Positions 1 through 41,541 of a stretch of DNA of 64,000 nt are shown here, in pieces. How positions within the stretch are numbered: the stretch's first letter is position 1; every line of letters starts with the position of its first letter. Source of the DNA: a virus (Duplodnaviria; Heunggongvirae; Uroviricota; Caudoviricetes); the IMG/VR virus record IMGVR_UViG_3300008267_000017, positions 1-64,000 of that record. One strand, written 5' to 3'. Position numbers and translations under genes: made by a program. The notes beneath the pieces are model-generated. The model searched no databases, was not told the origin of the DNA, and saw nothing but the letters and a program-made list of their open reading frames with translations.

Positions 1-102
1 TACACGTTCCTATTTCTAGGCTTCGCTCGGTATTGTCCGTTCTGGAGTTTCACCGAATTAGAGAGATTATTCGACACACCTTTCGGTGTGAAGCCACCAA
101 CA
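1..102 (-). mobile_element. possible 5' portion of a group I intron (or other insertion) interrupting the DNA polymerase gene immediately after the His codon of motif C (HDE)
   Basis: The polymerase ORF stops at 100-102 right after ...LLGQFH, where T7-type polymerases continue HDE. Downstream RNA has a GAAA-tetraloop hairpin (CACACC GAAA GGUGUG) and a second hairpin (CGAAU...AUUCG). The exon ends in U, and CCAU can pair with GUGG to give a P1-like U.G pair. Only about 100 nt are visible. Confidence 0.3.
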
Positions 103-1389
103 TTAATGGAACTGACCAAGCAACTTAAACTCCAACCCACGTTGCTTTGCAAGCTTGTTACAATGCCACAACCACAAATCTAAAATATATGCTCCTGTAC
201 CTTGAATCAATGTACTAAAACGATCTTTGTCAGATCGCAAAGAGTACCAGAACTTATTGATAGGATTTAGCTGCCAATCCCCAAAAGATGTTTTCTTTAC
301 AGTCATCATCTTAGAAATCTTCTCAATACTCCAATTCAGTTTGTGATAACCTTCATGAAGCTTCTTAGCCACCTTCTCAGATACCTTAGCTGTCCTTGCA
401 ATTGTCTTCACACCAGCTCCGTACTGGCAAGCGTAATTTGTAGACTTCCCTGCAGCACGAATGTCATCAAGTCGTCTGAACTCTGCATCACCTTCATCTG
501 TGTGCTGATCTTTGGGAAGCTTCTTATACATCTTATACCAAGCAATCTCTTCCTCTGTAATCAATCCTCCCATACCTGCAACCATTAGATGTGGGTCAAA
601 GCCATCTTCCATTTGACTCTTGACATACTCAGGGTCAATCTTCCATTGAAAGTGGTGTTTGAGGCGGTCTTCCAGAGAGGATAAATCTGATCCTAATAGA
701 GAACAGCCATCCCTAGCAACTAACAGCCCTCGAATCTGTTCACCATAAGCAACTCGCAAACTAGGAAGATTTACAAGAGTAGAGTGCTGCAGCCTCAACG
801 TATTAGTAAATCCTTGACAGCCAGCTTCCAGATATCCATCAACATGATCTCGTAAGAATCCCTTCACCATACTATTACGATGATTGAGAATACCCAAACC
901 TGCAATATGTTCAATACCTGCACACTTTGGAATCAAGTCTTTTACAGATTGACAAACTTCACCACCCTTTAAGTTTACTTGAGGAATCTGTCTTGTTGTT
1001 CCATCATCTTCACGAACAAACTTAAAGGTCTCGGCGACCCAACCTAAACTGTCCAACCATGCTTTTATTTGGGTGTGACTTGCTGGATTTCCATCTTCAT
1101 ATTCTTTGACTACTTTAATATCTTCTTTGTGCTCAAAGGGAAGTCCTAAAGATTCTGTAAGTTCCTTCCAACGCAGCCCTGTTGCAGACAGTTCACCACT
1201 TTTTGTATAGGGCTTTGCAGGACGTGAGCGAACAACATACTTAGGATTCTTAGGCATTGCAAGTCGTAGGGCATCTGTCTTTTTCTCTACTTCTACCTGC
1301 AACTCTCCTTGTAACTTCTCAGCACCCTCAACGTCAAGTTTCCACTTATTACGCTGCTGCATTACTTGCTCGTCCATCTTCCACATCAA
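103..1389 (-). CDS. family A (T7-like) DNA polymerase, polymerase-domain segment, frameshifted from the upstream exonuclease segment and truncated before motif C
   Basis: Motif A-like GSDLSSLEDRL (T7 GIDASGLELRC) and motif B-like KSTNYACQYGAG (T7 KTFIYGFLYGAG). The ORF opens with a TTG codon and has no RBS. It ends LLGQFH then stop, where HDE is expected. Confidence 0.8.
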   Translation of the reverse strand: MMWKMDEQVMQQRNKWKLDVEGAEKLQGELQVEVEKKTDALRLAMPKNPKYVVRSRPAKPYTKSGELSATGLRWKELTESLGLPFEHKEDIKVVKEYEDGNPASHTQIKAWLDSLGWVAETFKFVREDDGTTRQIPQVNLKGGEVCQSVKDLIPKCAGIEHIAGLGILNHRNSMVKGFLRDHVDGYLEAGCQGFTNTLRLQHSTLVNLPSLRVAYGEQIRGLLVARDGCSLLGSDLSSLEDRLKHHFQWKIDPEYVKSQMEDGFDPHLMVAGMGGLITEEEIAWYKMYKKLPKDQHTDEGDAEFRRLDDIRAAGKSTNYACQYGAGVKTIARTAKVSEKVAKKLHEGYHKLNWSIEKISKMMTVKKTSFGDWQLNPINKFWYSLRSDKDRFSTLIQGTGAYILDLWLWHCNKLAKQRGLEFKLLGQFH

Positions 1390-1394
1390 GAAGT

Positions 1395-1904
1395 CTACAA
1401 TGCGTTTATAGCTACCTGTTTATAGCTACCTTCTTCTTTACCGTACAACTCTTGTAGTCTTGTAACTTGACGTAGCCACAAGCGTTTCTGAATCTTACAG
1501 TCTTCAATAACACGATGGTTGTAGTCCTCTTGAGTTAAGTTTTCCCAATCAGTGATGGGTGGTTTTGGTACACCAAACTCCTCACCATATTTTTCTAAGC
1601 CATGAATAATGCGCGAAGGCTCTAAATACCATGACAGAGCGACGCTATCAATTAACTTGGAGTTGCTTGTATCAAATCCTAGGAATTGCAATGCTTCAAA
1701 GTCAAACAGCTTACCATAGTGCATCACAAGTGTGTGACCTTCATCTAAGAAATCTTGGATTCCTTGTGGATTTGTGTGTTCAAATAAAACAATCTCATCA
1801 CCTTCAATAGGTATTGCGCAGAAGTTATGAAGCCTTGGATTGGCTTGCTTCTTCATTTGGTGCAATAACCCTGTGGTTTCAATATCTGCTGCATAAATAC
1901 CCAT
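1395..1904 (-). CDS. DNA polymerase N-terminal 3'-5' exonuclease domain (segment of the family A polymerase ending at the duplication-induced stop)
   Basis: Exo I motif DIETTGL close to the N-terminus, as in T7 gp5 (DIEANAL). RBS GGGAGGT lies 6 nt before the ATG at 1904. The ORF track begins at a GTG at 1910. Confidence 0.8.
   Translation of the reverse strand: MGIYAADIETTGLLHQMKKQANPRLHNFCAIPIEGDEIVLFEHTNPQGIQDFLDEGHTLVMHYGKLFDFEALQFLGFDTSNSKLIDSVALSWYLEPSRIIHGLEKYGEEFGVPKPPITDWENLTQEDYNHRVIEDCKIQKRLWLRQVTRLQELYGKEEGSYKQVAINAL
1404..1431. repeat. perfect 14-bp tandem duplication (gtttatagctacct x2) inside the DNA polymerase gene, causing a frameshift
   Basis: Copies lie at 1404-1417 and 1418-1431. 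Deleting one copy joins ORF 1395-1910 to ORF 103-1389 in frame (...EEGSYK-RIVDFLMWKMDEQ...). Confidence 0.9.
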
Positions 1905-1916
1905 CTTCACACCTCC

Positions 1917-2150
1917 CTATTCATCATCCAAATTCCCAAGCAAAAGCTCTACCAAAGGCTCCAACAACGTCTCAGCAGCTTCTTCCCAAGCTTCGTATAA
2001 AGAACTTTCATTACCATAAGTGTAGAATACCTTTTGTCGAAATTCAAAAGCATATCTAGCAGAGTGACGACCTAATCCAAAGTTAGTAGGTGCTTCGCTG
2101 ATAAACTTAAGTCCAAATGCTTGTGCAATATCAACTTTAGTTAGTTTCAT
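1917..2150 (-). CDS. hypothetical protein
   Basis: ORF co-oriented with and abutting the polymerase start. Confidence 0.4.
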   Translation of the reverse strand: MKLTKVDIAQAFGLKFISEAPTNFGLGRHSARYAFEFRQKVFYTYGNESSLYEAWEEAAETLLEPLVELLLGNLDDE

Positions 2151-3498: not shown

Positions 3499-4065
3499 TT
3501 AATCTGTAATTTCTACAGTGTAGTTCATTAATGCCTCGTAAGCTCTAGGGTCAATTTTATCTCTCCATTTTTCTGCAAGCTCTTTAGCATAAGCTTCTTT
3601 TTCCTTCTTGTAGGCGTAGAAAGCTTCTTCCTCAGTAACAAAATACCCAAGCGACTCCCTTCCGTTACCTCTGGTTATCTGCGCTTGAAACTTCTTAATC
3701 CTTTTGTGAAAACTAACACCAACAGGATATTTACCCCTCAAAGAATTAGTCAAACTTAGAAATGAATTTATGCAAGTTGGAATAAGACAACAAGTATATC
3801 CAGAGTACAATTTGTTACCCTTCACAAGTAAGTCTTTATCTAATTCATAATTACCACATGAAATTTGTGAGTAATACCAACTAGCAAAATTCTGAAAATA
3901 CAGCCACTCATCAACAACTGTACAATTTTCATAAGTTTTTCTCCTAGATAGTGACACCTTTGAGTAGCACCTACGCAGCATACTATACCAGACCATATAG
4001 GATTCACAGTTAAAATCGTACTCTCCAGTGTCCTTAACTCCAACACCCCATATCAACTTTTTCAA
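3499..4065 (-). CDS. homing-endonuclease-like protein, paralog A: degenerate HNH-like N-domain plus AP2-type DNA-binding C-domain (ends ...VEITD)
   Basis: LDKDLLVKGNKLYS resembles the HNH HIDGNKxNN block with its His residues lost. The C-terminus RGKYPVGVSF...RESLGYFVTEEEAFYAYKK is AP2-like. Paralogous to 25201-25812 and 38758-39732. Sits beside the primase-helicase. Confidence 0.6.
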   Translation of the reverse strand: MKKLIWGVGVKDTGEYDFNCESYMVWYSMLRRCYSKVSLSRRKTYENCTVVDEWLYFQNFASWYYSQISCGNYELDKDLLVKGNKLYSGYTCCLIPTCINSFLSLTNSLRGKYPVGVSFHKRIKKFQAQITRGNGRESLGYFVTEEEAFYAYKKEKEAYAKELAEKWRDKIDPRAYEALMNYTVEITD

Positions 4066-5720
4066 AAGGAAACCTCTTCATCTTCATCAGAAACAACAGC
4101 CCAAGTATCTGCATCAAGTTTGAAAGCATCAGCTACACCCAAATATGACCATGTACGATTTTTAAGCGTAACAATTCGGCAACGTCCTCGTGTACGGTCT
4201 GGCATAATCTCTGGCTCTAATGCCAAGATATTCCAACTCAAAGCCTCTAAGCTGCTGCTACCTCTCAAAGACTCTTTAGTTACTCGCACCCAAAACGGTT
4301 GATCTTCCTTACCTTTAGGTGGCTTAAAAGCATCAGCATTAGTACGATTAATATGACTAATCACGATAATACAAATATCATTAGCTGCGCAGAAAGCAGC
4401 AAGAGTGGTCATCGTCATATCTAGTTCAGCACGTTCATTAGCTACGTCTGGAGAAGTTAGAATAGAAATATGGTCTACCACAATGTAGCGACAGCCTTCT
4501 ACAAAATACATGTGCTTGATCTTGCTCATAAACTCGGACAAAGGGAGTGACCCAAAGTGATCTAACATCACAACTTTATTATCTCCAATGATATTGTCGT
4601 ACACTTTTCTAATATCTTCAAGTGAAGCAACAGAAGTTGGTTTGTTCTTAAACTCTAAGTAATTAACTTTCAGTTGTGAAGCAATCATACGTTGAAGTGT
4701 TTCTTCTGGACGTTCTTCTAAGTAAATCATCCCCACACGCTCCCCTGCAGACATAAAAGCATTCGCAAAGATAGCAGAAATTGTACTCTTGCCAACATTT
4801 GTAGGAGCACATAGTAGAGTCAGTTCACGAGTTCTAAAACCTTTGATTTGATTCATAAGCTTAGGAAACTCTGGAACCATAATACCAACAGGACGTTCTG
4901 CAATCAATTGCTCAAAACTAATATCTTCGGCTTTCAGAATCTTCTCAGCAACATATGGTTTAATTCCAAACGCAGCTAACTTAGCTAATTCCTTACTCTT
5001 ACCTTGTTGAAGATAATCAGAACAATCTTTCATTTCTACGTTATGTGGTAAGTAGAACAAAGGAGCACCCATCAGAGCATTACCTAATGCGTCTCGTGCT
5101 TCACGTCCCTTCATCATACCTTTTAACTTCTCTGCTGCTGTAGCTTCATCGTTGTCCATAGCTAAAACAATAGCATCTTTAAAAGACATCACGAAGTCTT
5201 TATTCTGAAGGACATGTTCTGTCGCAGAAGCTGTTCCAAAACCAATACTTACAACAAAGGGCTTTAAATCAGAGTAAGACGTTCCTTTTACATCGTCAAT
5301 CAACGACTGGTACAAACTGGCTGCACAGAACTCACCTTCAACAATAAACAATTTAGAATGCTTACGCTGATTTTGGTTAGCTAAAGGTTGTCCATACAAT
5401 TGCACATCCTTTTTCAAATTTCCAACTGTTGTGAAATGATACTTCTCATCTTTTGGGATGGTCATATCACGTTTCTTGAAAGCTACAAGCTCTCCCTTCT
5501 GATTGTAGTAAGGGAAATAATATGCAATATGTGTCTTCCCATCGCTAGGACTTAATGCAGTTCTAATGCCAAATAACTCACATGTTTCTTTTGTTAAACC
5601 TCGTTCTGGAATATCCATAAACGGGTACGTTAATACATCCTTCAAACTTTCCTTTGGCTCATATTTTTCTCCATTACTACTCATCTCATCTCCTTTGTTT
5701 TGTTTCCAATAACCCATCAC
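4062..5720 (-). CDS. T7 gp4-like DNA primase-helicase (TOPRIM primase domain plus DnaB-family helicase, no zinc-binding domain seen)
   Basis: TOPRIM motifs IVEGEFCAASL and LAMDNDEAT. Walker A LLCAPTNVGKST, Walker B-like IVVDHIS, and a helicase arginine-finger region. Confidence 0.85.
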   Translation of the reverse strand: MMGYWKQNKGDEMSSNGEKYEPKESLKDVLTYPFMDIPERGLTKETCELFGIRTALSPSDGKTHIAYYFPYYNQKGELVAFKKRDMTIPKDEKYHFTTVGNLKKDVQLYGQPLANQNQRKHSKLFIVEGEFCAASLYQSLIDDVKGTSYSDLKPFVVSIGFGTASATEHVLQNKDFVMSFKDAIVLAMDNDEATAAEKLKGMMKGREARDALGNALMGAPLFYLPHNVEMKDCSDYLQQGKSKELAKLAAFGIKPYVAEKILKAEDISFEQLIAERPVGIMVPEFPKLMNQIKGFRTRELTLLCAPTNVGKSTISAIFANAFMSAGERVGMIYLEERPEETLQRMIASQLKVNYLEFKNKPTSVASLEDIRKVYDNIIGDNKVVMLDHFGSLPLSEFMSKIKHMYFVEGCRYIVVDHISILTSPDVANERAELDMTMTTLAAFCAANDICIIVISHINRTNADAFKPPKGKEDQPFWVRVTKESLRGSSSLEALSWNILALEPEIMPDRTRGRCRIVTLKNRTWSYLGVADAFKLDADTWAVVSDEDEEVSF

Positions 5721-5726
5721 ATCTCC

Positions 5727-5909
5727 TTAGCAAAGATACCAATATCCAATCCCAACATCCTCAAGAATGTGTTCATCACTGAATAAGAAATCTTCAGATT
5801 CATCTCCAATGTCGTTCACAGACCTTACTTCTATGAAGCTTGTTCTATAAGTATCTAAAGGACTTCTAGAAGATAATACTTCATATACATAATATTTCTT
5901 AAAGCCCAT
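5727..5909 (-). CDS. hypothetical protein
   Basis: Small ORF between the helicase and the next gene. Confidence 0.35.
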   Translation of the reverse strand: MGFKKYYVYEVLSSRSPLDTYRTSFIEVRSVNDIGDESEDFLFSDEHILEDVGIGYWYLC

Positions 5910-6214
5910 TATAATAAGCCATCCATAGTTACTTTGTGCAGATGTGTAATTTCCTCATCCATTCTTACAATAGAATCGCAGAGCTTAATCACTTGTACAC
6001 GAGCTGACTTGAGTTCTTTCTTTAGATGCTTCAACTCTCGCTCATCTAAAATCAACTGCCTGAGAAGCTGCTTGTCTTGCTTTTGCTCAACAATAAACCG
6101 CTTATACTGAGCCTTCATAGCCCTCGTTGTAGCAAACTCACCCATTCGAGTTATTAGATATGAACGCCTTGATATCCTACTCTGCAACACACTCATCAAC
6201 TTTTGTTTGTTCAT
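5909..6214 (-). CDS. hypothetical basic, coiled-coil-like protein
   Basis: ORF in the co-oriented array. Confidence 0.4.
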   Translation of the reverse strand: MNKQKLMSVLQSRISRRSYLITRMGEFATTRAMKAQYKRFIVEQKQDKQLLRQLILDERELKHLKKELKSARVQVIKLCDSIVRMDEEITHLHKVTMDGLL

Positions 6215-6356
6215 ACATTCTCCTCATAAAACCTATCATACTCATCAGTGCCAAACTCAAGTACATAATAGTCATCACTCTTCCAGATACTGTCATACCA
6301 ATCTTCTCGGCACATCCAACCACCGTCTGCCCATACGAATATGTCTTCTAGGCTTG

Positions 6357-6878
6357 TCATGTAACACCTCCATTCTTAGCACAGTGTAATTGGTAAACAC
6401 AACGAGCATAACTGTCAGCTTCTGTCTTGTCAAGACGCTCTTCGACAAAAACTGGTAGAAACAGAGAAGCAATCTTATTATCTCGCTTAGAAATAATGTC
6501 ATTAGCTTTCACTGTAACATAAATACTATAGTCTTGTATAGTCTCTGGAGAATACATTTCCCACCAAGCTTTACGTTGATCATCCGAGAATCCTGTACCT
6601 ACGTCTGATACGAGCAACCTATCTCTAGAAGCCACTGTCAAGCTACCCATCATACCTTTATATTTGTTCGTACCTTCTGTTATACCAATCACTTCCAAAT
6701 CTACTTCAAACTCGATTTTAAGTTTTAAACAGTCTTTTGATGTCCCTGAAGACCACTTAAAATCCTTAGTTTTAATTACACACCCCTCAGAACCGTTGGA
6801 AGTATATTCTGAATAGATTGAATAAGCTTCTTCTAGTGACTCTACTTTGTATGTCTTTACCATTTTAATATTTTTCAT
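6357..6878 (-). CDS. ATP-dependent DNA ligase, C-terminal segment (motifs IV and V, OB domain), translated as a separate ORF with its own RBS
   Basis: EGCVIK (motif IV) and LKLK (motif V). GGAG RBS 8 nt upstream of its ATG, lying inside the 3' end of the HNH gene. Confidence 0.8.
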   Translation of the reverse strand: MKNIKMVKTYKVESLEEAYSIYSEYTSNGSEGCVIKTKDFKWSSGTSKDCLKLKIEFEVDLEVIGITEGTNKYKGMMGSLTVASRDRLLVSDVGTGFSDDQRKAWWEMYSPETIQDYSIYVTVKANDIISKRDNKIASLFLPVFVEERLDKTEADSYARCVYQLHCAKNGGVT

Positions 6879-6881
6879 ATT

Positions 6882-7439
6882 TTATTCTCCGTGTGTCTCA
6901 GTATACCCATAACCTAATAAATTTAACTTTTTAATTTGATTCTGCCTACACTCAATAGCAAGCCGCATTGCTTCATCTTTTCCGTATTTTATAACAGAAA
7001 ATGATTTTTGTCTCATTCTCTTATCCGTGTCATACCAAAAAGCAATATAAGCAGGAAATCTTGAATTTCTAAAATAAACCCCTGTAGTCCCTGTTGAATT
7101 ATTTGGATGCTTACTCCTGTTTCTAGCATTGTTTTCAGCCTTAACAGCTCTTATATTCTCTATTTTATTATCAGTCTTATCCCTGTTAATATGGTCTATT
7201 ACATAACCTTCCCACATGTCTTTGTTGAACATTTCATAAATTATTCTGTGTACTAGATATGTTTTACTTTTTAATTTGACATTATAGTATCCGTGAGAAC
7301 TTTGAGAAACCACTGGGTCTCCTTTATTCACTAAAACTCTTTTATAATATTCACCTGTAAATACACTGACTTGCCACCTCAAACAGCTAGGACTTGTCTC
7401 ATCATAATAAAACCAATCGTGCCAGTTAATTTCACTCAT
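6882..7439 (-). CDS. HNH homing endonuclease with AP2 DNA-binding domain, inserted between the two halves of the DNA ligase gene
   Basis: HNH core VIDHINRDKTDNKIENIRAVKAENNARN. AP2 domain GVYFRNSRFPAYIAFWYDTDKRMRQKSFSVIKYGKDEAMRLA. Its ATG lies 2 nt after the ligase-N stop, and its stop lies 3 nt before the ligase-C ATG. Confidence 0.85.
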   Translation of the reverse strand: MSEINWHDWFYYDETSPSCLRWQVSVFTGEYYKRVLVNKGDPVVSQSSHGYYNVKLKSKTYLVHRIIYEMFNKDMWEGYVIDHINRDKTDNKIENIRAVKAENNARNRSKHPNNSTGTTGVYFRNSRFPAYIAFWYDTDKRMRQKSFSVIKYGKDEAMRLAIECRQNQIKKLNLLGYGYTETHGE

Positions 7440-8280
7440 CTTTTAAAATCCTTTTCAGTGTCTCCAATCTCTCTGTATAAGGCACACTTGATTTACCAGC
7501 TTTAAATTCTGCCACTGTCAAACAATCCCAAGCTGTCAACTCAAATGCGAGATTATCCCCTACTTCCCCACCCTTAAGAACACTATTCAAAATACCATTT
7601 CCTGTCTTTCGGTCTAAAGGAACACCTAATGTAGCAGCTTCTCCATACACTAATAATTCTCCCACCACTACAAACCCTTCAGGAAGTCCTACAGCAAGCT
7701 TTTCAGCGAATTCTGGAGGATACTTGCTACCAGCTCGTGTAATCGCTTCAGGAGCCTTTCCCGCCTCTTTAACAAGGTAGCAGAAACTACCATCAAGCTT
7801 CTCTTGTACGAAGAATGACTTGAGCTTACTAAAACGCTCTTTTACTTTAACATCCATTAGTGAGCATCTTTGGTAAGGTGGAATAAAATACAAATCAGGA
7901 AACACTTTCAAAATCATTGTGTCACCTACACCAGCTCCGATAGAGCGTTTGATGAGAAGTTCTAGAAGCTCTTGACCTTGTTTGTTTAAGTGCTTATACT
8001 GATAAGTCAACCAAGTCTCTGCTTCTTTTCCAGTTACTTTACGATCTGCTAAATACCACACAACATTAGACAATATTTTAAAGTTTATATCGTGCTCTGT
8101 GTCATATTGATCTGTAACTTTAGTAATTTTTGTTTGATAATAACTAATAGCAGGGTCATACACTGCCTTCAAATAAGCCTTCAACAGCTCATTGTCCTTA
8201 TTAGCTTCCAAAATAGCTGTCTTAGCATTTGAGCCAGAAGCATTCTGCAGTTCTTTAATAATTGTATATAAATTACTCAT
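7432..8280 (-). CDS. ATP-dependent DNA ligase, N-terminal adenylation segment (motifs I, III, IIIa)
   Basis: KLDGSF (motif I KxDG) and VVGELLVYGE (motif III). Start refined to MSNLY, which has AAGAGGAG 7 nt upstream. Confidence 0.8.
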   Translation of the reverse strand: MSNLYTIIKELQNASGSNAKTAILEANKDNELLKAYLKAVYDPAISYYQTKITKVTDQYDTEHDINFKILSNVVWYLADRKVTGKEAETWLTYQYKHLNKQGQELLELLIKRSIGAGVGDTMILKVFPDLYFIPPYQRCSLMDVKVKERFSKLKSFFVQEKLDGSFCYLVKEAGKAPEAITRAGSKYPPEFAEKLAVGLPEGFVVVGELLVYGEAATLGVPLDRKTGNGILNSVLKGGEVGDNLAFELTAWDCLTVAEFKAGKSSVPYTERLETLKRILKDE

Positions 8281-8455
8281 TAACATTCTCCTCTTGATTA
8301 TCACGACCCTCATTATGCAACTGACTAGCAGCAACCTCTCGTAATACATTTAATGAATTATACATCTCTGCAGGAGTGTAGTGTTCTATATCTCTGACAA
8401 TTGCTTCTAGTTTCTTCTTGAAATAGTGAGCATCCAGTCCGTACCTGTTGTTCAT
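8273..8455 (-). CDS. hypothetical protein
   Basis: Small ORF whose stop overlaps the ligase start. Confidence 0.35.
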   Translation of the reverse strand: MNNRYGLDAHYFKKKLEAIVRDIEHYTPAEMYNSLNVLREVAASQLHNEGRDNQEENVNE

Positions 8456-15538: not shown

Positions 15539-15727
15539 TTAGGTTCATAAGTAATTTGCTAGGCTCAATTCTAGGCATATTATCAGAGTATGTCAAGAAG
15601 TTTGCATCTGATTCTTTATAATTATTGAAAAGTATCATTTCCATAGCATAAGACTTTCCGTAATGAGTGCCTCCTCCGACAATTAGAACTCTCTTATCAT
15701 CTTTTACGTAGAGTTCTTCCTTCATAC
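15525..15727 (-). CDS. hypothetical protein (start refined to MKEEL, ATGA-coupled to the recombinase stop)
   Basis: GGGTHYGKS is P-loop-like but short. Confidence 0.35.
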
Positions 15728-16372
15728 ACTCCCTTTCATAGAAATTTGCTTCTGCAACTGGTTCCATTTCGCTTCTAATTGCTTGAAAGCCTCTGCACAA
15801 GAATATTGCTTCTTGTACGTGCTTACACTTTTCTCAGATACACCATGTCGGTGAGCCACATTCATACGAGAAACACCAGCTTGCAAGTCTGCTAGGATAG
15901 CTTTGATTTTGTCTGGGGAGTTTGTTTGTCTTTTGCCAAGTATCACCCCTTCAGCTTTGCGTCTAGCTAATCCCGATATTACACGCTTCTTGATACTTTT
16001 GAGTTCATTAGCTGCCAACACAGCATGAATGTCAAACTCAATTTTATCATCCTCTCCTTGCAGAACTTTACCAATTTGAAGGATGTTAATCTTCACTCCA
16101 CGTTTGAGAAGTGTTTCAGCAATCGAGATAGTATTACCAGAGCCACGACCCCAACGGTCTACACGAGTGCTGTAAATGGTTGTGTCAGAGTCTACTTCCT
16201 CAATCATACGAGAGAACCCTGCACGTTCATACACACTCTTTGCACCACTAATTCCGTGGTCGATGTAGTAGGCATCGAATTTACCACCGATAAATTCTTC
16301 AAGCTCAAAAATTTGATTTTCTGGGCATTGATCTGTGCGCGAAACACGAGCATAAAGTACACGTTTTGACAT
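15722..16372 (-). CDS. small serine recombinase (resolvase/invertase family) with C-terminal HTH
   Basis: RVLYARVSRTDQ holds the catalytic Ser. VDRWGRGSGNTISIAETLLKRGVKINIL resembles the resolvase DRLGRS block. C-terminal HTH VSRMNVAHRHGVSEKSVSTYKK. Confidence 0.85.
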   Translation of the reverse strand: MSKRVLYARVSRTDQCPENQIFELEEFIGGKFDAYYIDHGISGAKSVYERAGFSRMIEEVDSDTTIYSTRVDRWGRGSGNTISIAETLLKRGVKINILQIGKVLQGEDDKIEFDIHAVLAANELKSIKKRVISGLARRKAEGVILGKRQTNSPDKIKAILADLQAGVSRMNVAHRHGVSEKSVSTYKKQYSCAEAFKQLEAKWNQLQKQISMKGSV

Positions 16373-24346: not shown

Positions 24347-24388
24347 TTATCCACAGATTATCATTAGTTATCCACAGAGTTATCCACA
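24347..24388 (+). promoter_or_regulatory. cluster of three perfect consensus DnaA boxes (TTATCCACA) in direct orientation
   Basis: Boxes at 24347-24355, 24368-24376 and 24380-24388. Located in a 900-bp ORF-free region between convergent transcription units, with AT-rich stretches and palindromes nearby. Confidence 0.6.
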
Positions 24389-25200
24389 GGCTGAGGGGTT
24401 TATTGCAACTTTGACAGTATAGCAACAGAGAACTAGACCAAACGGTCTACAACATACATACAGCCATGTATGTATAACGCATTAACAACTACACAACACA
24501 TGCACCATTCGAGTGCATAACATAGCGAAATGCTATCTATTACCAGTCGTCATACCTGTTCCCTTTCTATACCCTAACCAAGCTAACTATCTTAGCACGT
24601 CACACAATACCGATTGCAAGCCAATAGAAGCACTCACAAGGCACGTTCTATAACTGTCCTATGTCTTACTGTGCTCAATGATTTAAACGTCTCTAATCGC
24701 TTCTATTGCGACACCTAAACAGGTATTTGCTTCACTTACAGGGCGATTCGGTACATATTTCAGGGAAGCAAGGACTGTGCCAGCTCACACCTTCACCCCT
24801 GTTAAACAACGATTGCGCCTCCCACCATTTTCTAGTATCACTTGATAAAACTCACAAAATATATTTCCAAAAACTGAGAAATACTCTCCTAACAAATAGG
24901 TCACTTCTGAAAAATTTTTGGATGAAATTTGACGTTCAAAACACTTTTTGCAGATATTTTCCTGTATAAAATTACAACAAGTGTGTCTTAAAACAACATA
25001 TAAAATTAAATTTTTAAATTTTAGCGTTTAAGGAACTTTATCAGGGAATATGAATATAGATATTGCAGCCTTTTAATATCGAATAAGGAAGCAACAAATG
25101 ATGGGATTTAGCCGTGGAAAAGCTCTCGAAACAATAAACTGATAGTTGAGTACCAGAATACTATTTGAGAGCTTTTTAGGTGCGATTTTATAACGAGAAG

Positions 25201-25812
25201 TTAGTCTGTAATTTCAACTGTGAAGTTATTTAAAGCTTCGATTACTTTAGGATGTATCATTCCTTCATACTTTATTGCGAGTTCTTTAGCAAGAGCTTCC
25301 TTGTAAACTTTGTAAGCTTGGAAGGCTTCTTCTGGAGTGTCGTAGAATCCTAGATGTTTACTGCAGCTTCTGCCATCACTTGCAGTTGCTCTGTACATCC
25401 CCTTCAATTTGTAGAAGTCTACACCTATTGGATGGCTGCCTCTGTCTCCTTTCCTTTTTGTCAAGAAAGTATTAACTTGCCTTGGAATAAAGAAGCTTGT
25501 ATCCTCTGAGTAAAGTTTATTTCCTTTGAGCACAACGTCCTTGTCCAATTGATAATCTTTTAACTTAAATCCTATCTGAGACTGACACCACTCTGCGAAA
25601 TATTGAAAGTTCTTAAAATTATCAGAAGCTTCGCAACCTATATAACTAGGATACCTTACATGGAGTTTCGCAGAGTAACACCTCTCCAGCATATTTTGCC
25701 ATAAGATGTATTCTTTCGTACGTTTTCTACCGATACTTCTAAGATGTTTCCCTTTTTCAGAAACTCCGACTCCTTGCACTAACCTCTTACCCATTCTTAT
25801 TCCTCTCCTCAA
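25201..25812 (-). CDS. homing-endonuclease-like protein, paralog B (degenerate HNH-like plus AP2-like, ends ...VEITD)
   Basis: QLDKDVVLKGNKLYS and C-terminal RGSHPIGVDF...GFYDTPEEAFQAYKVYKEALAKELA. Paralog of 3499-4065 and 38758-39732. Confidence 0.6.
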   Translation of the reverse strand: MRRGIRMGKRLVQGVGVSEKGKHLRSIGRKRTKEYILWQNMLERCYSAKLHVRYPSYIGCEASDNFKNFQYFAEWCQSQIGFKLKDYQLDKDVVLKGNKLYSEDTSFFIPRQVNTFLTKRKGDRGSHPIGVDFYKLKGMYRATASDGRSCSKHLGFYDTPEEAFQAYKVYKEALAKELAIKYEGMIHPKVIEALNNFTVEITD

Positions 25813-26338
25813 TAATTTGTTTCAACTTCTCCCACACAATAGGGGTATAGTCAATATTTTCCATAGATACACAATAATACCTGTCATCCACTTCTCGACT
25901 GCCTTGCATAACATCATTGTATACTCCCACTTCTTTGCTATGTAAGTGACCATGTATGTTCATTTTATACCTAGGAATAACACTAGCAGGATGCAAAGGG
26001 ATATGACTCATAACGTAGTCATCAAATACTTTCACTCCATGCAACTTCTTGAAGTACACTAAGTATTCCTCAGCTCTCATTGTGTCGTGATTGCCCATTA
26101 CCAATTCTTTTGTGCCATTCAGTCTAGCAGCTAGTGGCAAAGCACTACGATTGATAACGAAGTCTCCTAGCACAATTACAGTGTCTTTAGGCCGTACAAC
26201 ACTGTTCCAATTAGCTATTAAAGCTTCGTTCATTTCTTCTACATCTGTCCAAGGACGTTCTTTCTCTCCATTAGGACGAAGGAAGTTTACAATCCCTCTG
26301 TGTCCTAAGTGCATATCAGCACAAACGAATGTGGTCAT
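25787..26338 (-). CDS. calcineurin-like metallophosphoesterase
   Basis: Motifs CADMHLGH (DxH), VLGDF (GD), MGNHD (GNHD), and IHGHLH. Confidence 0.8.
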   Translation of the reverse strand: MTTFVCADMHLGHRGIVNFLRPNGEKERPWTDVEEMNEALIANWNSVVRPKDTVIVLGDFVINRSALPLAARLNGTKELVMGNHDTMRAEEYLVYFKKLHGVKVFDDYVMSHIPLHPASVIPRYKMNIHGHLHSKEVGVYNDVMQGSREVDDRYYCVSMENIDYTPIVWEKLKQIIEERNKNG

Positions 26339-32176: not shown

Positions 32177-32334
32177 TTCACACTCCCTTCCACAACAGCA
32201 AGCACACGGTTTGTATTGACAGCCTTCTTAATACGATTAATCTCCATATCAATATCATCAACAGCCTCTGGAGAGTCATCTAGTAATTTACCTAATGTGC
32301 CATCTAGTTTTCGATAGTAGTAATGTACGTTCAT
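32176..32334 (-). CDS. small protein (52 aa)
   Basis: ATGA overlap on both sides. Confidence 0.3.
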
Positions 32335-33146
32335 TTAGTTCCCTTTCCTACATTTTGGTTGCGAGCACTCACTTTACTCTTTGATAGGGTAAACGGGGTT
32401 TCAATAATATTCTTTAAGAACATTCCATCAATATCATCTACACAGTGATTTAATACAACACTGCGTTTGAAATGTGTATCACCTTTGTGAAATTTAAGAA
32501 GCTCTTCTGGAATCTTGCTTACAACTTCATTCTTGAAGCTGAATGTACCGTATTTAAAGAACTCTGGCAAATCTTCCCAAGAATTACCAGCTTCATGTAG
32601 CATTTGTATCTTTTGTTCACTATTTTTGTGCATGATAGCTTTATGTCCAAATACAGTGTGAGCTGCCATAGAGATAGAGTTCTTTTTAGCGTCAAGCCAG
32701 CGCCATTTGAGAACATTCTCTACGTCTTCCAAATCTGGTACATTGAATACACGACAATCGAAGAAAGCTAATATATCTGACTTCTCTGTGATAGTTGTAC
32801 TAAGTTCTTTGTTAAATTTAGCTGTTGCCATACTTGCAAGTACAGATGAAAGCTTCTGAACCCTGCCTCCGAACAATGTTTGTTGATGTGGTGCAGTGAT
32901 GTAATAAATCAATGTAATCTCATCACTCTGGGTGTACCCGATCTTGGCATCAGTTTTCTCCACTAAATAATTCATGGTGTCAATCATTACATCTGAAAGA
33001 CGTTTATCAAATGGACGTGCCAACCCTTTGCAAAACGTGTGAAAAGCCTTGCCATCAAGTCGAACACATATTGGATTCTTTTCATCTAAGTGTTGCTCAG
33101 AGTCTTTTTCATAAGCTTTGATAACATCCCCTAATTTGTCGTTCAT
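32331..33146 (-). CDS. Thg1-like protein (tRNA-His guanylyltransferase family 3'-5' nucleotidyltransferase)
   Basis: ICVRLDGKAFHTF matches Thg1 VVRLDGRNFHRF. IGYTQSDEITLIY matches IAYGQSDEYSFVF, which carries the catalytic carboxylates. Confidence 0.8.
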   Translation of the reverse strand: MNDKLGDVIKAYEKDSEQHLDEKNPICVRLDGKAFHTFCKGLARPFDKRLSDVMIDTMNYLVEKTDAKIGYTQSDEITLIYYITAPHQQTLFGGRVQKLSSVLASMATAKFNKELSTTITEKSDILAFFDCRVFNVPDLEDVENVLKWRWLDAKKNSISMAAHTVFGHKAIMHKNSEQKIQMLHEAGNSWEDLPEFFKYGTFSFKNEVVSKIPEELLKFHKGDTHFKRSVVLNHCVDDIDGMFLKNIIETPFTLSKSKVSARNQNVGKGTK

Positions 33147-38101: not shown

Positions 38102-38176
38102 GCATCCTTAGCTCAATGGTGGAGCGAGTGCCTTCCAAGCACAAGGTCGAGAGATCGGTACTCTCAGGATGCTCCA
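38102..38176 (+). tRNA. tRNA-Gly (anticodon UCC) with a non-canonical T-loop
   Basis: 7-bp acceptor stem with G1:C72 and C2:G71, discriminator U and encoded CCA. D-arm GCUC/GAGC. Anticodon loop CUUCCAA is identical to E. coli tRNA-Gly(UCC). T-stem GAGAG/CUCUC with loop AUCGGUA instead of UUCGAAU. Confidence 0.55.
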
Positions 38177-38757: not shown

Positions 38758-39732
38758 ATGGAAAAGAAAAGAGTACATTCAAATAAGCCGCAAATTAGTG
38801 TTGGAGATGTTTTCAAGACGAATTGTTATGGAGATGTGGAAGTAATTGAATACCTTAACGCGAATAAAATCAAGGTGAAGTTCATAGTTGACGGATACCA
38901 GAGATACACAACATCTGGTAATTTGCAAAAGGGTAAAGTGAAGAATCCCACTATACCAACTATTGAACATGCAGGAAGAGCATCGAAGAATGTTTGTATT
39001 GGTGGAATCTATAAGAACACAAATGGATTGCAATTCAAAGTAGTTGAATACACAGATGCAAAGAATGTTAAAGTGGAGTTTGAGTCTGGTTATATTACAA
39101 ACTGTTCTCTTCAACGAGTTCGTGACGGAGGAATATCTGATAACTTCTCTCCATCCAGATTTCAAGGGTATTTAGGTACTTTAGTAGGTGTTGAAGTTAA
39201 AAACGTGGCAAAGACTAAGGAGCATATTCACTGGTCAAGTATGTTAGCAAGATGTTTCTGTGAGGAATACCAAGATAAGTATCCGACTTATAAAGGTACA
39301 ACTATCTGTGAAGAGTGGTTAAATTTTACAGTTTTTGCTAAATGGTGTAGAGAACAGCCTGAGTTTTTGTTGGGACATAGAGTTTTTCTGGATAAGGATA
39401 TTCTAAATAAAGGAAACAAGCACTATAGTCCAAATACATGTACTTTTGTCCCTCACGCTGTTAATACTTTGTTTACTAAAGCGGATGCAAGCAGAGGTAA
39501 GTATCCTATAGGGGTGTCTTATTGCACAACTCGAAATACAATAACTGCCTGTGTCCGCATTGATAAGCGAACTAAATACTTGGGCAGGTTTGCAAATGCC
39601 ACTGATGCATTCTACGCATACAAGAAAGCAAAAGAGGTTTATATTAAAGAACTTGCTGAGAAATTTAAAACAGTTATTTCAAACGAGTGTTACTTAGCAA
39701 TGTACAGGTATGAGGTTGAAATAACAGATTAG
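38758..39732 (+). CDS. homing-endonuclease-like protein, paralog C (N-terminal extension, degenerate HNH-like, AP2-like, ends ...VEITD), immediately upstream of the terminase gene
   Basis: FLDKDILNKGNKHYS and C-terminal RGKYPIGVSY...LGRFANATDAFYAYKKAKEVYIKELA. GAGGAGCAAAATATG RBS. Confidence 0.6.
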   Translation: MEKKRVHSNKPQISVGDVFKTNCYGDVEVIEYLNANKIKVKFIVDGYQRYTTSGNLQKGKVKNPTIPTIEHAGRASKNVCIGGIYKNTNGLQFKVVEYTDAKNVKVEFESGYITNCSLQRVRDGGISDNFSPSRFQGYLGTLVGVEVKNVAKTKEHIHWSSMLARCFCEEYQDKYPTYKGTTICEEWLNFTVFAKWCREQPEFLLGHRVFLDKDILNKGNKHYSPNTCTFVPHAVNTLFTKADASRGKYPIGVSYCTTRNTITACVRIDKRTKYLGRFANATDAFYAYKKAKEVYIKELAEKFKTVISNECYLAMYRYEVEITD

Positions 39733-39739
39733 AGGTAAA

Positions 39740-40120
39740 ATGGTTAAAAAAGAAAGAGTAAAGTTCCAGCCGTGTAGTGAAAAACAACGGCTGATTCTCA
39801 TGGATAACACTACAGATGTCATCCTCATAGGAGGCGGAGCTGGGGGAGGCAAGTCTCGGATTTGTTTAACAAAGAACTTAGATGGCATTAAAGATTCAAA
39901 GTTCAGGTGTGTAATCCTTCGGCGCTTTGAGCCAGAGCTTAAAAAACAAGGTGGATTGATTGATGAGTCCAAAAACGTCTATCCGCACTTTACAAAAATA
40001 CCTTATAAAAGTCAACAAAAATTATGGGAATTTCCATCTGGAGCAACCATAGGATTTTCTGCAATTTCTTGCGATGACGACCTTGGAAGTTGGCAAGGTA
40101 GTCAATTAACGCGTAAATAA
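39740..40120 (+). CDS. terminase large subunit, exon 1 (ATPase N-terminus with Walker A)
   Basis: Walker A ILIGGGAGGGKS preceded by a Q-motif-like region. The ORF ends about 90 aa after Walker A, where Walker B is expected. Confidence 0.8.
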   Translation: MVKKERVKFQPCSEKQRLILMDNTTDVILIGGGAGGGKSRICLTKNLDGIKDSKFRCVILRRFEPELKKQGGLIDESKNVYPHFTKIPYKSQQKLWEFPSGATIGFSAISCDDDLGSWQGSQLTRK

Positions 40121-40377
40121 TGCGCCTTTATTTAGAAATAGGTAAAGCAAACTCATTGAATTCAGGGGAAGCGTAGAACACGTTATCCTGATCTAAGCCT
40201 AAATACAACTCAGAAATAAAGTATGAGAAGAAAGTGTTAGGAAAGAGCAACGACTATCCTGAAAGGGAGTACACTCAAGTGAGTGGAAGCGGTGAGAATC
40301 CTCTATAGAGGATTATGATATAGTCTGATCTGTATAGGGATATACAGCGGCTTGAATAAAGCGGAGTAAGAGTAACG
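40115..40377 (+). mobile_element. ORF-less group I intron (about 263 nt) in the terminase large subunit gene, inserted just before the Walker B codons
   Basis: R element CAACGACUAU at 40248-40257 and S element GAUAUAGUCUG at 40317-40327 form P7 (GACUAU/AUAGUC). P8 hairpin AAUCCUCUA/UAGAGGAUU. Candidate P1 with the U40114.G40122 wobble at the 5' splice site. Omega-G at 40377 gives an in-frame join ...GSQLTR-NLFEHLILIDEA. Exact junctions are tentative. Confidence 0.65.
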
Positions 40378-41541
40378 AACTTATTTGAACACTTGATTTT
40401 AATTGACGAAGCTGCAGATAAGTGGACTGAGAAACAAGCCTTGTTTTTGCAGTCTCGATTGCGTACAGTTGGCTCTGATATCCACCCACAACTGGTTATG
40501 TCCTGCAACCCAGACCCTAATAGTTTCTTATTTGAATGGGTTAAGTTCTGTCTTGATGAAGACACAGGAGTTCCAAAAGAAGGTACTGAGCATCTTATTA
40601 GATGGTTCTGTGTAGAGGATAACAAAGCTAAATGGGCTGGTAGTCCAGAAGAGTGCTATGAATTATATGGTGCTCCTAAGAATCTAATTTATGCTCATGG
40701 AATGACAGAAGAACAAATGAATACCTTCTCTAAAGAAGAGAAGATGAGGTTATTCATGCCTAAGTCATTTAGGTTTATCCCAACTGGTGTTTTTGACAAC
40801 CCTTATCTACTTCCCCCGAAGAATACAAGTTACCTAGCTTCCTTATTATCTCAACCTCATGTGAATCAGTTAAAATTTCTTCACGGAAGTTGGACTGCAA
40901 GAGAAGAAGGTAGTATGTACTTCGACAGAAAATGGGTGGAGATTGTTGACTTCCCTCCTGTCAATGCTACAGCTAGGGTTAGAGCTTGGGACTTTGCTTC
41001 AGAAGAGAAGACAAAAACTAACAATCCCGATTGGACAGCAGGTGTAAAAATGTCTAGGGATAGAAATGGTATTTACTATATCGAAGATGTTGTCCGTATC
41101 CAAGCTCGTACTGATAAAGTATTAAAAACTGTTATTGAAACAGCTAAATCTGACGGACTGAACGAATGTGATGTGTGTATTCCAGTTGACCCTGCAGCAG
41201 CAGGTAAAACAGCAGCGCACTTCTATCTTAAAGTGTTGGCAGAGAATGGAGTGGCAGCAAAGAAAGCACAATCTTCTGGACACAGTAGCAAACTTACACG
41301 TTTCAAACCATTCTGTTCTTTAGCAGAAAGTGGCAGCGTGAAAGTAGTTAGAGGTGAATGGAATGATGCATTCTTTGCAGAACTTGAAGCCTTCTCTGGT
41401 GAAAAAGCAATCGAGAGAACTCAAAAGAATGACCAAGTGGATGCTACCTCAGATAGTTTTAACCTTCTAGCAAGACAGTTACAACTGCCTACATTTAGTA
41501 TTCCTAGCCTCACTAAAGCTTCTCCAGTACCAACAATATAA
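40378..41541 (+). CDS. terminase large subunit, exon 2 (Walker B LILIDEA and C-terminal nuclease domain)
   Basis: Walker B hhhhDE LILIDEAADKW. The frame is open from 40360. The C-terminal region is consistent with an RNaseH-like terminase nuclease. Confidence 0.8.
   Translation, partial: NLFEHLILIDEAADKWTEKQALFLQSRLRTVGSDIHPQLVMSCNPDPNSFLFEWVKFCLDEDTGVPKEGTEHLIRWFCVEDNKAKWAGSPEECYELYGAPKNLIYAHGMTEEQMNTFSKEEKMRLFMPKSFRFIPTGVFDNPYLLPPKNTSYLASLLSQPHVNQLKFLHGSWTAREEGSMYFDRKWVEIVDFPPVNATARVRAWDFASEEKTKTNNPDWTAGVKMSRDRNGIYYIEDVVRIQARTDKVLKTVIETAKSDGLNECDVCIPVDPAAAGKTAAHFYLKVLAENGVAAKKAQSSGHSSKLTRFKPFCSLAESGSVKVVRGEWNDAFFAELEAFSGEKAIERTQKNDQVDATSDSFNLLARQLQLPTFSIPSLTKASPVPTI

Follow-up and report, generated by a model that had tools for sequence, protein, structure and literature searches.

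A perfect 14-bp tandem duplication splits the DNA polymerase gene of an ~86-kb phage into two ORFs, one carrying the exonuclease domain and the other lying in the polymerase frame. The two-copy allele is private to one assembly, the strain's other assembly being single-copy; the duplication is a very recent one-off event, unconserved and unprogrammed, and the normal gene of the strain has one copy of the unit and encodes a single-chain T7 gp5-like polymerase, the mRNA of which also needs splicing of a group I intron in motif C. Our preferred account, to which we assign a probability of roughly 0.55, is that the second copy arose as a very recent sporadic duplication in the DNA behind the one contig that carries it. 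Throughout, 'the window' denotes the whole 64-kb stretch of DNA analysed, which covers most of the phage genome, ~22 kb of it lying outside.

A T7 gp5-like polymerase gene with an intron in motif C

The gene encodes a T7 gp5-like family A DNA polymerase with an N-terminal DnaQ-type 3'-5' exonuclease domain. Once repaired by removal of one copy of the repeat, its product runs for 595 aa to ...GQFH and has more than 2,000 homologues, of which the full-length ones are nearly all ~645 aa long and carry Pfam DNA_pol_A (PF00476, precomputed); the 428-aa ORF of the window itself matches PF00476 at 41.9 bits, against a cut-off of 34.3. At the N terminus lies the DxE exonuclease motif AADIETTG, its D7 and E9 invariant in 36 homologues, with alignment to T7 gp5 residues 3-101. 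A single-sequence search of the PDB with the polymerase gave no match, a profile being required: that of 36 homologues placed T7 gp5 first among solved relatives (E 2.8e-14), and for an AlphaFold (AF2) model (pLDDT 89.4) the top 27 Foldseek matches were all T7 gp5 (best 6p7e_A, E 4e-19, TM 0.68-0.71). The claim from which we started, that the duplication frameshifts a T7 gp5-like polymerase, is thus upheld by profile and by fold.

Like T7 gene 5, the window gene combines the DxE motif, a DNA_pol_A match and polymerase motifs A and B, and as in T7 its neighbourhood includes a primase/helicase and a ligase, here within a phage replication module that also contains thymidylate synthase. Unlike T7 gp5, with which it shares a sequence identity of only ~18-19%, it resides in a genome of ~86 kb rather than 40 kb, has its motif C interrupted by a group I intron and, on this contig, contains a frameshifting duplication. 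Its closest cultured relatives are Chaseviridae-like phages (~51% identity), in which the protein is matched in one piece. A compensating second DNA polymerase in the window was considered and found unsupported among the large replication-side ORFs.

The downstream ORF, 103-1389, stops at ...LLGQFH, within motif C (HDE), owing to the start of a group I intron and not to the end of the gene; the earlier assignment of this ORF to the polymerase domain was right as to frame and wrong as to extent, since the intron begins at 105 and cuts the domain short. Only ...GQFH of the motif lies in the window, the D and E being found in exon 2 of the relatives L007, L006 and P0289; the left edge of the window cuts off the remaining intron and exon 2 (50 codons). 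Positions 115->1 match the 5' half of the RF00028 model (20.1 bits, E 0.044), as a fragment cut by that edge. The complete arrangement can be read in L007, 98% identical to the window strain in protein and ~91% in DNA over the polymerase region, where exon 1 runs to ...CAT at 1827 and exon 2 (DELINEQ..., 50 codons) begins at 2068, the two being separated by an element of 240 nt without an ORF (1828-2067). The 240-nt element scores 58.7 bits against RF00028 (gathering threshold 50; E 1.3e-14); the Rfam gathering scan had missed it, and a focused scan with E-value thresholds recovered it. At its borders, ...CAU/UAAUG...AAACG/GAUGAA..., the exon ends in U and the intron in G, and the joined exons give GQFH-DELINEQ... 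in the register of the intron-less 645-aa relatives. Exon 2 was located in L006 as well as in L007, and in both an HNH endonuclease gene lies just downstream of it. Among relatives 97.5-99% identical, intron-bearing (595 aa) and intron-less (645 aa) forms are both present; the intron is thus polymorphic, and because of this presence and absence among such close relatives it is probably still mobile.

Other genes of the window are interrupted too. The terminase large subunit contains a complete group I intron (40105-40347, plus strand; RF00028, 83.3 bits) between ORFs 39740-40120 and 40393-41541, which match phrog_979 positions 147-266 and 267-614, the first of these ORFs being directly preceded by a free-standing HNH endonuclease gene of 324 aa (38758-39732). 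The ATP-dependent DNA ligase (6357-8349, minus strand) is made up of two abutting ORFs, 7432-8349 and 6357-6878, which flank an HNH_3+AP2 endonuclease ORF (6882-7439); the relative L006 has a single 450-aa ligase. No Rfam intron signal was found at the window ligase, so that it appears, from sequence, to be truly two polypeptides, split by a homing-endonuclease insertion. Paralogous HNH/AP2-type endonuclease genes occur at 3499-4065, 6882-7439, 25201-25812 and 38758-39732. The otherwise lytic-looking genome also carries a serine recombinase/DNA invertase-like ORF (phrog_125; 15722-16372, minus strand), as well as a tRNA-His guanylyltransferase-like gene (phrog_4717) and a single tRNA-Gly(TCC) gene, at 32331-33146 and 38102-38176.

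The duplication, its reading frames and its single-copy relatives

Direct reading of the sequence finds GTTTATAGCTACCT twice in tandem with perfect identity, 1404-1417 being the same as 1418-1431, so that the plus strand from 1396 to 1440 reads TACAATGC-GTTTATAGCTACCT-GTTTATAGCTACCT-TCTTCTTTA (Table 1). The bases flanking 1404-1431 do not lengthen the repeat, and its borders are therefore without microhomology. This is the sole perfect tandem duplication of at least 13 nt within the 64-kb window and, by Tandem Repeats Finder, the only 100% two-copy repeat of its length there; a perfect 14-nt tandem duplication arose in 0 of 200 first-order Markov simulations of the window. Elsewhere, the only other perfect tandem duplication of at least 10 nt belongs to a 12-nt unit (TTATCCACAGAG-like, ~3.8 copies) at 24347-24389. 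The original prediction had reported the perfect repeat at 1404-1431 and held that removing one copy would fuse the two ORFs in frame; sequence and simulations bear out the first statement, and the second proves equally sound. Deletion of either copy yields a single ORF, ...YGKEEGSYKRIVDFLMWKMDEQVMQQRN..., whose junction, YGKEEGSYK/RIVDFLMWKMDEQ, is that of every relative covering the junction.

Table 1. Features of the polymerase locus, in window coordinates
Feature	Position	Strand	Remarks
Strong Shine-Dalgarno, GGGAGGTG	1910..1917	-	Serves ATG 1904; duplex energy -15.7 kcal/mol
3'-5' exonuclease-domain ORF	1395..1904	-	Residues 1-162 plus out-of-frame tail QVAINAL; 169 aa; stop TAG 1397-1395
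14-nt unit AGGTAGCTATAAAC, upstream copy in gene direction	1418..1431	-	Exonuclease frame reads ...(E)GSYK; no second copy in relatives
14-nt unit, downstream copy	1404..1417	-	Polymerase frame reads GSYK plus first base of R163; exonuclease frame reads ...QVAIN
Polymerase frame, remainder of exon 1	106..1419	-	Opens after TAA 1422-1420; ends at motif C His codon 108-106
Group I intron, first 105 nt	1..105	-	Interrupts motif C (HDE) after ...GQFH; ORF seems to stop at its initial TAA codon

An insertion of 14 nt amounts to 4 codons plus 2 nt. On the minus strand of the window, where the gene lies, the exonuclease frame reads ...GAA GGT AGC TAT AAA CAG GTA GCT ATA AAC GCA TTG TAG (...EGSYKQVAINAL, then stop) and the polymerase frame TAA ACA GGT AGC TAT AAA CGC ATT GTA GAC TTC TTG ATG TGG (stop, then TGSYKRIVDFLMW...). 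Of the exonuclease ORF as first drawn, 1395-1910, the stop end stands; the start moves from GTG 1910 to ATG 1904, whose very strong Shine-Dalgarno (-15.7 kcal/mol) compares with a gene median of -6.2 kcal/mol. For the downstream half, which the database gene call renders as 427 aa from ATG 1386, the candidate restarts are TTG 1389, ATG 1386 and ATG 1377, and none has a usable Shine-Dalgarno: their energies are +0.5, +0.5 and -3.5 kcal/mol, where the gene median is -6.2 and random background gives -1.5. The exonuclease stop lies 5 nt before TTG 1389 and 8 nt before ATG 1386, and a stop-to-start spacing of 5-8 nt is compatible with termination-reinitiation (translational coupling). Of the earlier view that the downstream half starts at a TTG without a ribosome-binding site and is unlikely to be translated, the missing Shine-Dalgarno is thus confirmed, and 'unlikely' becomes less certain given that spacing.

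The single-copy form of the same strain is found on JAVQIO010072641.1 (5,960 bp; NCBI GCA_031546345.1), which matches window positions 6595->1310 over 5,272 nt with 1 mismatch, 5 nt from the contig end, and one 14-nt gap that corresponds to the second copy; its polymerase ORF is uninterrupted (...YGKEEGSYKRIVDFLMWKMDEQVMQQRNKWKLDVEGAEK...). At its other extremity this contig ends inside an HNH/AP2-type endonuclease gene, at about window position 7283. That it stops 94 nt past the duplication site might be read as an assembly-graph signal, a reading we did not adopt, since 94 nt fits no standard k-mer size. Exact products of the two small genes upstream of the polymerase are on two contigs only, this one and the 85,969-bp JGI/IMG contig, and the latter, being the one contig for which the 169-aa and 427-aa split products are recorded, is therefore the source of the window. 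The other listed members of the polymerase 90%-identity cluster have 595 or 645 aa, apart from two shorter, incomplete ones, and all that cover the junction are intact. DNA alignment to six relatives and L007 shows a clean 14-nt gap opposite one copy, the insertion being identical to its neighbour; across residues 150-190, all 46 fetched related loci that cover the site read through in a single frame; and in 272 cultured-phage records a single location accounts for 80% or more of the protein, each of the 30 matches listed being in one piece. Exact DNA patterns allowing one or two copies found no match in IMG/VR or in JGI metagenome contigs, collections from which the source contig is absent.

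Compared with L007, the nearest other strain, both halves are under strong purifying selection (ω ~0.03): at a dS of ~0.45, the exonuclease part gives a dN/dS of 0.036 and the polymerase part one of 0.023. The polymerase half, downstream of the frameshift, shows neither decay nor relaxation of constraint, and the frameshift is therefore far younger than the divergence of the window strain and L007. The single-mismatch match to JAVQIO010072641.1 agrees with a very recent age of the duplication.

The interdomain linker and natural split polymerases

In the AlphaFold model the last exonuclease helix spans residues 125-154, a loop residues 155-161 (GKEEGSY) and the next helix residues 162-181. The break comes after K162, and thus sits in the linker between the exonuclease and polymerase domains.

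The same linker is a point of division in other phages. A search of the exonuclease ORF against 1.8 billion representatives returned many complete proteins of ~150-170 aa whose ends come only a few residues past the conserved motif ...ELY(G). On the T7-like contig L062, a primase/helicase is followed by two ORFs, an exonuclease of 151 aa and a DNA_pol_A protein of 475 aa, that overlap by 26 nt (L062 3475-5332) and align to residues 7-154 and 163-645, respectively. On L058, L059 and L060, which come from three independent samples, the order is a 153-aa exonuclease, a 343-aa ORF without a Pfam match, polymerase residues 163-457, an HNH gene and polymerase residues 444-645; in L058 the pieces lie at 5001-8450 and the exonuclease match ends at residue 154. 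Stand-alone exonuclease homologues also occur on L056 and L057, contigs too short to show a polymerase partner. In clade B T7-like cyanophages, too, the exonuclease domain is described as occupying a separate ORF (PMC12695635). The linker struck by the duplication is, then, a proven viable split point in other lineages.

The likeness to these natural splits is one of position, the window break at 162/163 and those of L062 and L058 at 154/163 falling in a common interdomain linker. The differences are in history and in signals: the natural splits are fixed in their lineages, whereas that of the window is private to one contig and stems from a fresh duplication; and L062 has a Shine-Dalgarno-preceded ATG within its 26-nt overlap and L058 an ATGA stop-start, whereas the downstream ORF of the window has no Shine-Dalgarno.

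Two further features of the family came to light. The homologues P0094 and P0098-P0111 (~460 aa, ...YKWYK...) are recurrently truncated at about residue 457, which is the second split point of L058, and their sequences suggest that this is another common site of intron or endonuclease insertion. Two others, P0025 (985 aa) and P0093 (979 aa), exceed the usual polymerase by ~340 aa, an extra length that may represent an intein or a fused domain.

Origin and meaning of the second copy

On our preferred account, replication slippage or a template switch would have produced the second copy; the insertion falls in the loop that joins the final helix of the exonuclease domain to the initial helix on the polymerase side. 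Ribosomes recruited by the Shine-Dalgarno of ATG 1904 would make the 162 exonuclease residues with their QVAINAL tail and stop at the TAG, and the polymerase part would depend entirely on termination-reinitiation at the TTG or ATG that lies 5-8 nt further on, or on the rare genome that had reverted. The two-copy variant would coexist with the intact allele or have recently arisen from it and, the polymerase part being without a ribosome-binding site of its own, would be hypomorphic at best, if not defective; the phage could be non-viable, dependent on a helper, or weakly viable as a two-subunit mutant. Events of this kind are already known: like slippage duplications (and their assembly look-alikes), this one is a perfect head-to-tail copy, of a length not divisible by 3, in a conserved gene and absent in the closest relatives; unlike slippage duplications, it lacks flanking microhomology and lies exactly at a domain boundary.

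We infer that the duplication was present in real DNA rather than only in a consensus, and likewise the manner in which the two ORFs would be expressed. In favour of the preferred account, the same-strain contig, with its intact frame, differs by one mismatch and exactly the second copy; the split products are confined to one contig while relatives read through the junction; and the dN/dS values of both halves betray no decay of the downstream one. The 28-nt tract is shorter than usual assembly k-mers, so that a short-read de Bruijn assembly would have needed it in the reads. Where the window was compared with relatives, no other frameshifted gene was seen, the other interruptions being introns or HNH genes, and a break in the 155-161 loop (pLDDT 89), a natural split point, fits a variant surviving some selection. 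On the other side of the scale, the allele stands on a single contig and could be a consensus or polishing artefact, it breaks an essential, strongly constrained replicase without a compensating start signal, and it has no microhomology at the repeat borders, where slippage events often have it.

The strongest competing account, which we hold to be a serious prospect though short of an even chance, is that the phage DNA is single-copy and that the second copy was added by assembly, polishing or consensus calling while the 85,969-bp contig was being built; possible routes include a long-read polishing window boundary, gap closing and contig merging. The uniqueness of the allele to this contig, the single copy in an independent same-strain assembly and the choice of an essential gene (ω ~0.03) with no compensating signals all speak for such an error. 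De Bruijn mis-traversal, however, should be unable to create the copy when k > 28, and an artefact has no reason to strike an interdomain linker of ~8 residues. We lean to the real variant because a perfect 14-nt tandem copy, a tract of 28 nt, is atypical of platform error, because the rest of the window is clean, without other frameshifts or spurious duplications, and because the linker, at ~1.5% of the gene, would be hit by chance only at about that rate. Candidate further frameshifts, which would have pointed to a poor assembly, were examined and set aside: the overlapping ORFs 25201-25812 and 25787-26338 turned out to encode an HNH endonuclease and a phosphoesterase, and the split ligase and split terminase are explained by an inserted HNH gene and an intron, respectively.

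A variant of the real-mutation reading differs as to origin only, making the second copy the footprint of a mobile element or homing endonuclease, left when a staggered break was repaired by fill-in or when an element inserted and was later lost. The window offers a setting for it, containing as it does four or more HNH endonuclease genes, a ligase split by an HNH gene and two group I introns, and missing border microhomology fits staggered-cut fill-in better than classical slippage; yet no relative has any insertion at the site, we know of no element or endonuclease that leaves a 14-bp footprint there, and we judge this origin highly improbable.

Least credible of all is programmed recoding, in which full-length polymerase would be made by -1 frameshifting or by a 14-nt ribosomal hop between the identical codons of the two copies. 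As in -1 frameshifting or the bypass of T4 gene 60, the polymerase frame is -1 relative to the exonuclease frame and matched codons flank a short untranslated gap, the take-off and landing codons matching trivially because the copies are identical and 14 nt apart; an 8-bp hairpin can also form between the copies, as a by-product of the palindrome TAGCTA that each contains. Unlike those systems, the window has no X XXY YYZ heptamer in the 30-nt overlap TAT AAA CAG GTA GCT ATA AAC GCA TTG TAG, no stop codon directly after the take-off codon (the first in-frame stop comes 7 codons past the last duplicated codon) and unremarkable local RNA folding (z = -1.8), and neither the two-frame arrangement nor any bypass-stimulating element is conserved, relatives and the same strain having one copy. 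The original prediction had left the choice between a recent slippage mutation, an artefact and a site corrected or bypassed at some frequency: our results favour one of the first two and disfavour the third, for which conservation and a slippery site are missing and the same strain has a single copy.

For annotation, the polymerase is best described as one gene, join 1904..1418, 1403..106, intron, exon 2, with no split or missing replicase to report, and the practical value of the duplication is as a quality flag for the annotation of the contig. The locus also illustrates a dense colonisation of this phage group by group I introns and HNH endonucleases. The biological interest of the duplication is modest but real, the lesion falling exactly at the linker where naturally two-subunit polymerases of family A are divided. 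A two-piece enzyme that retains weak function is possible given the natural splits at the same point and the TTG and ATG 5-8 nt downstream of the stop, and the duplicated GSYK codons give both products a complete linker end. That the two-copy allele is both real and tolerated, and so marks the birth of a split replicase with an exonuclease and a polymerase subunit, the second made by termination-reinitiation, we regard as unlikely, if well short of far-fetched; were it true as the majority allele, linker duplication combined with translational coupling would be a simple, testable route to split phage replicases.
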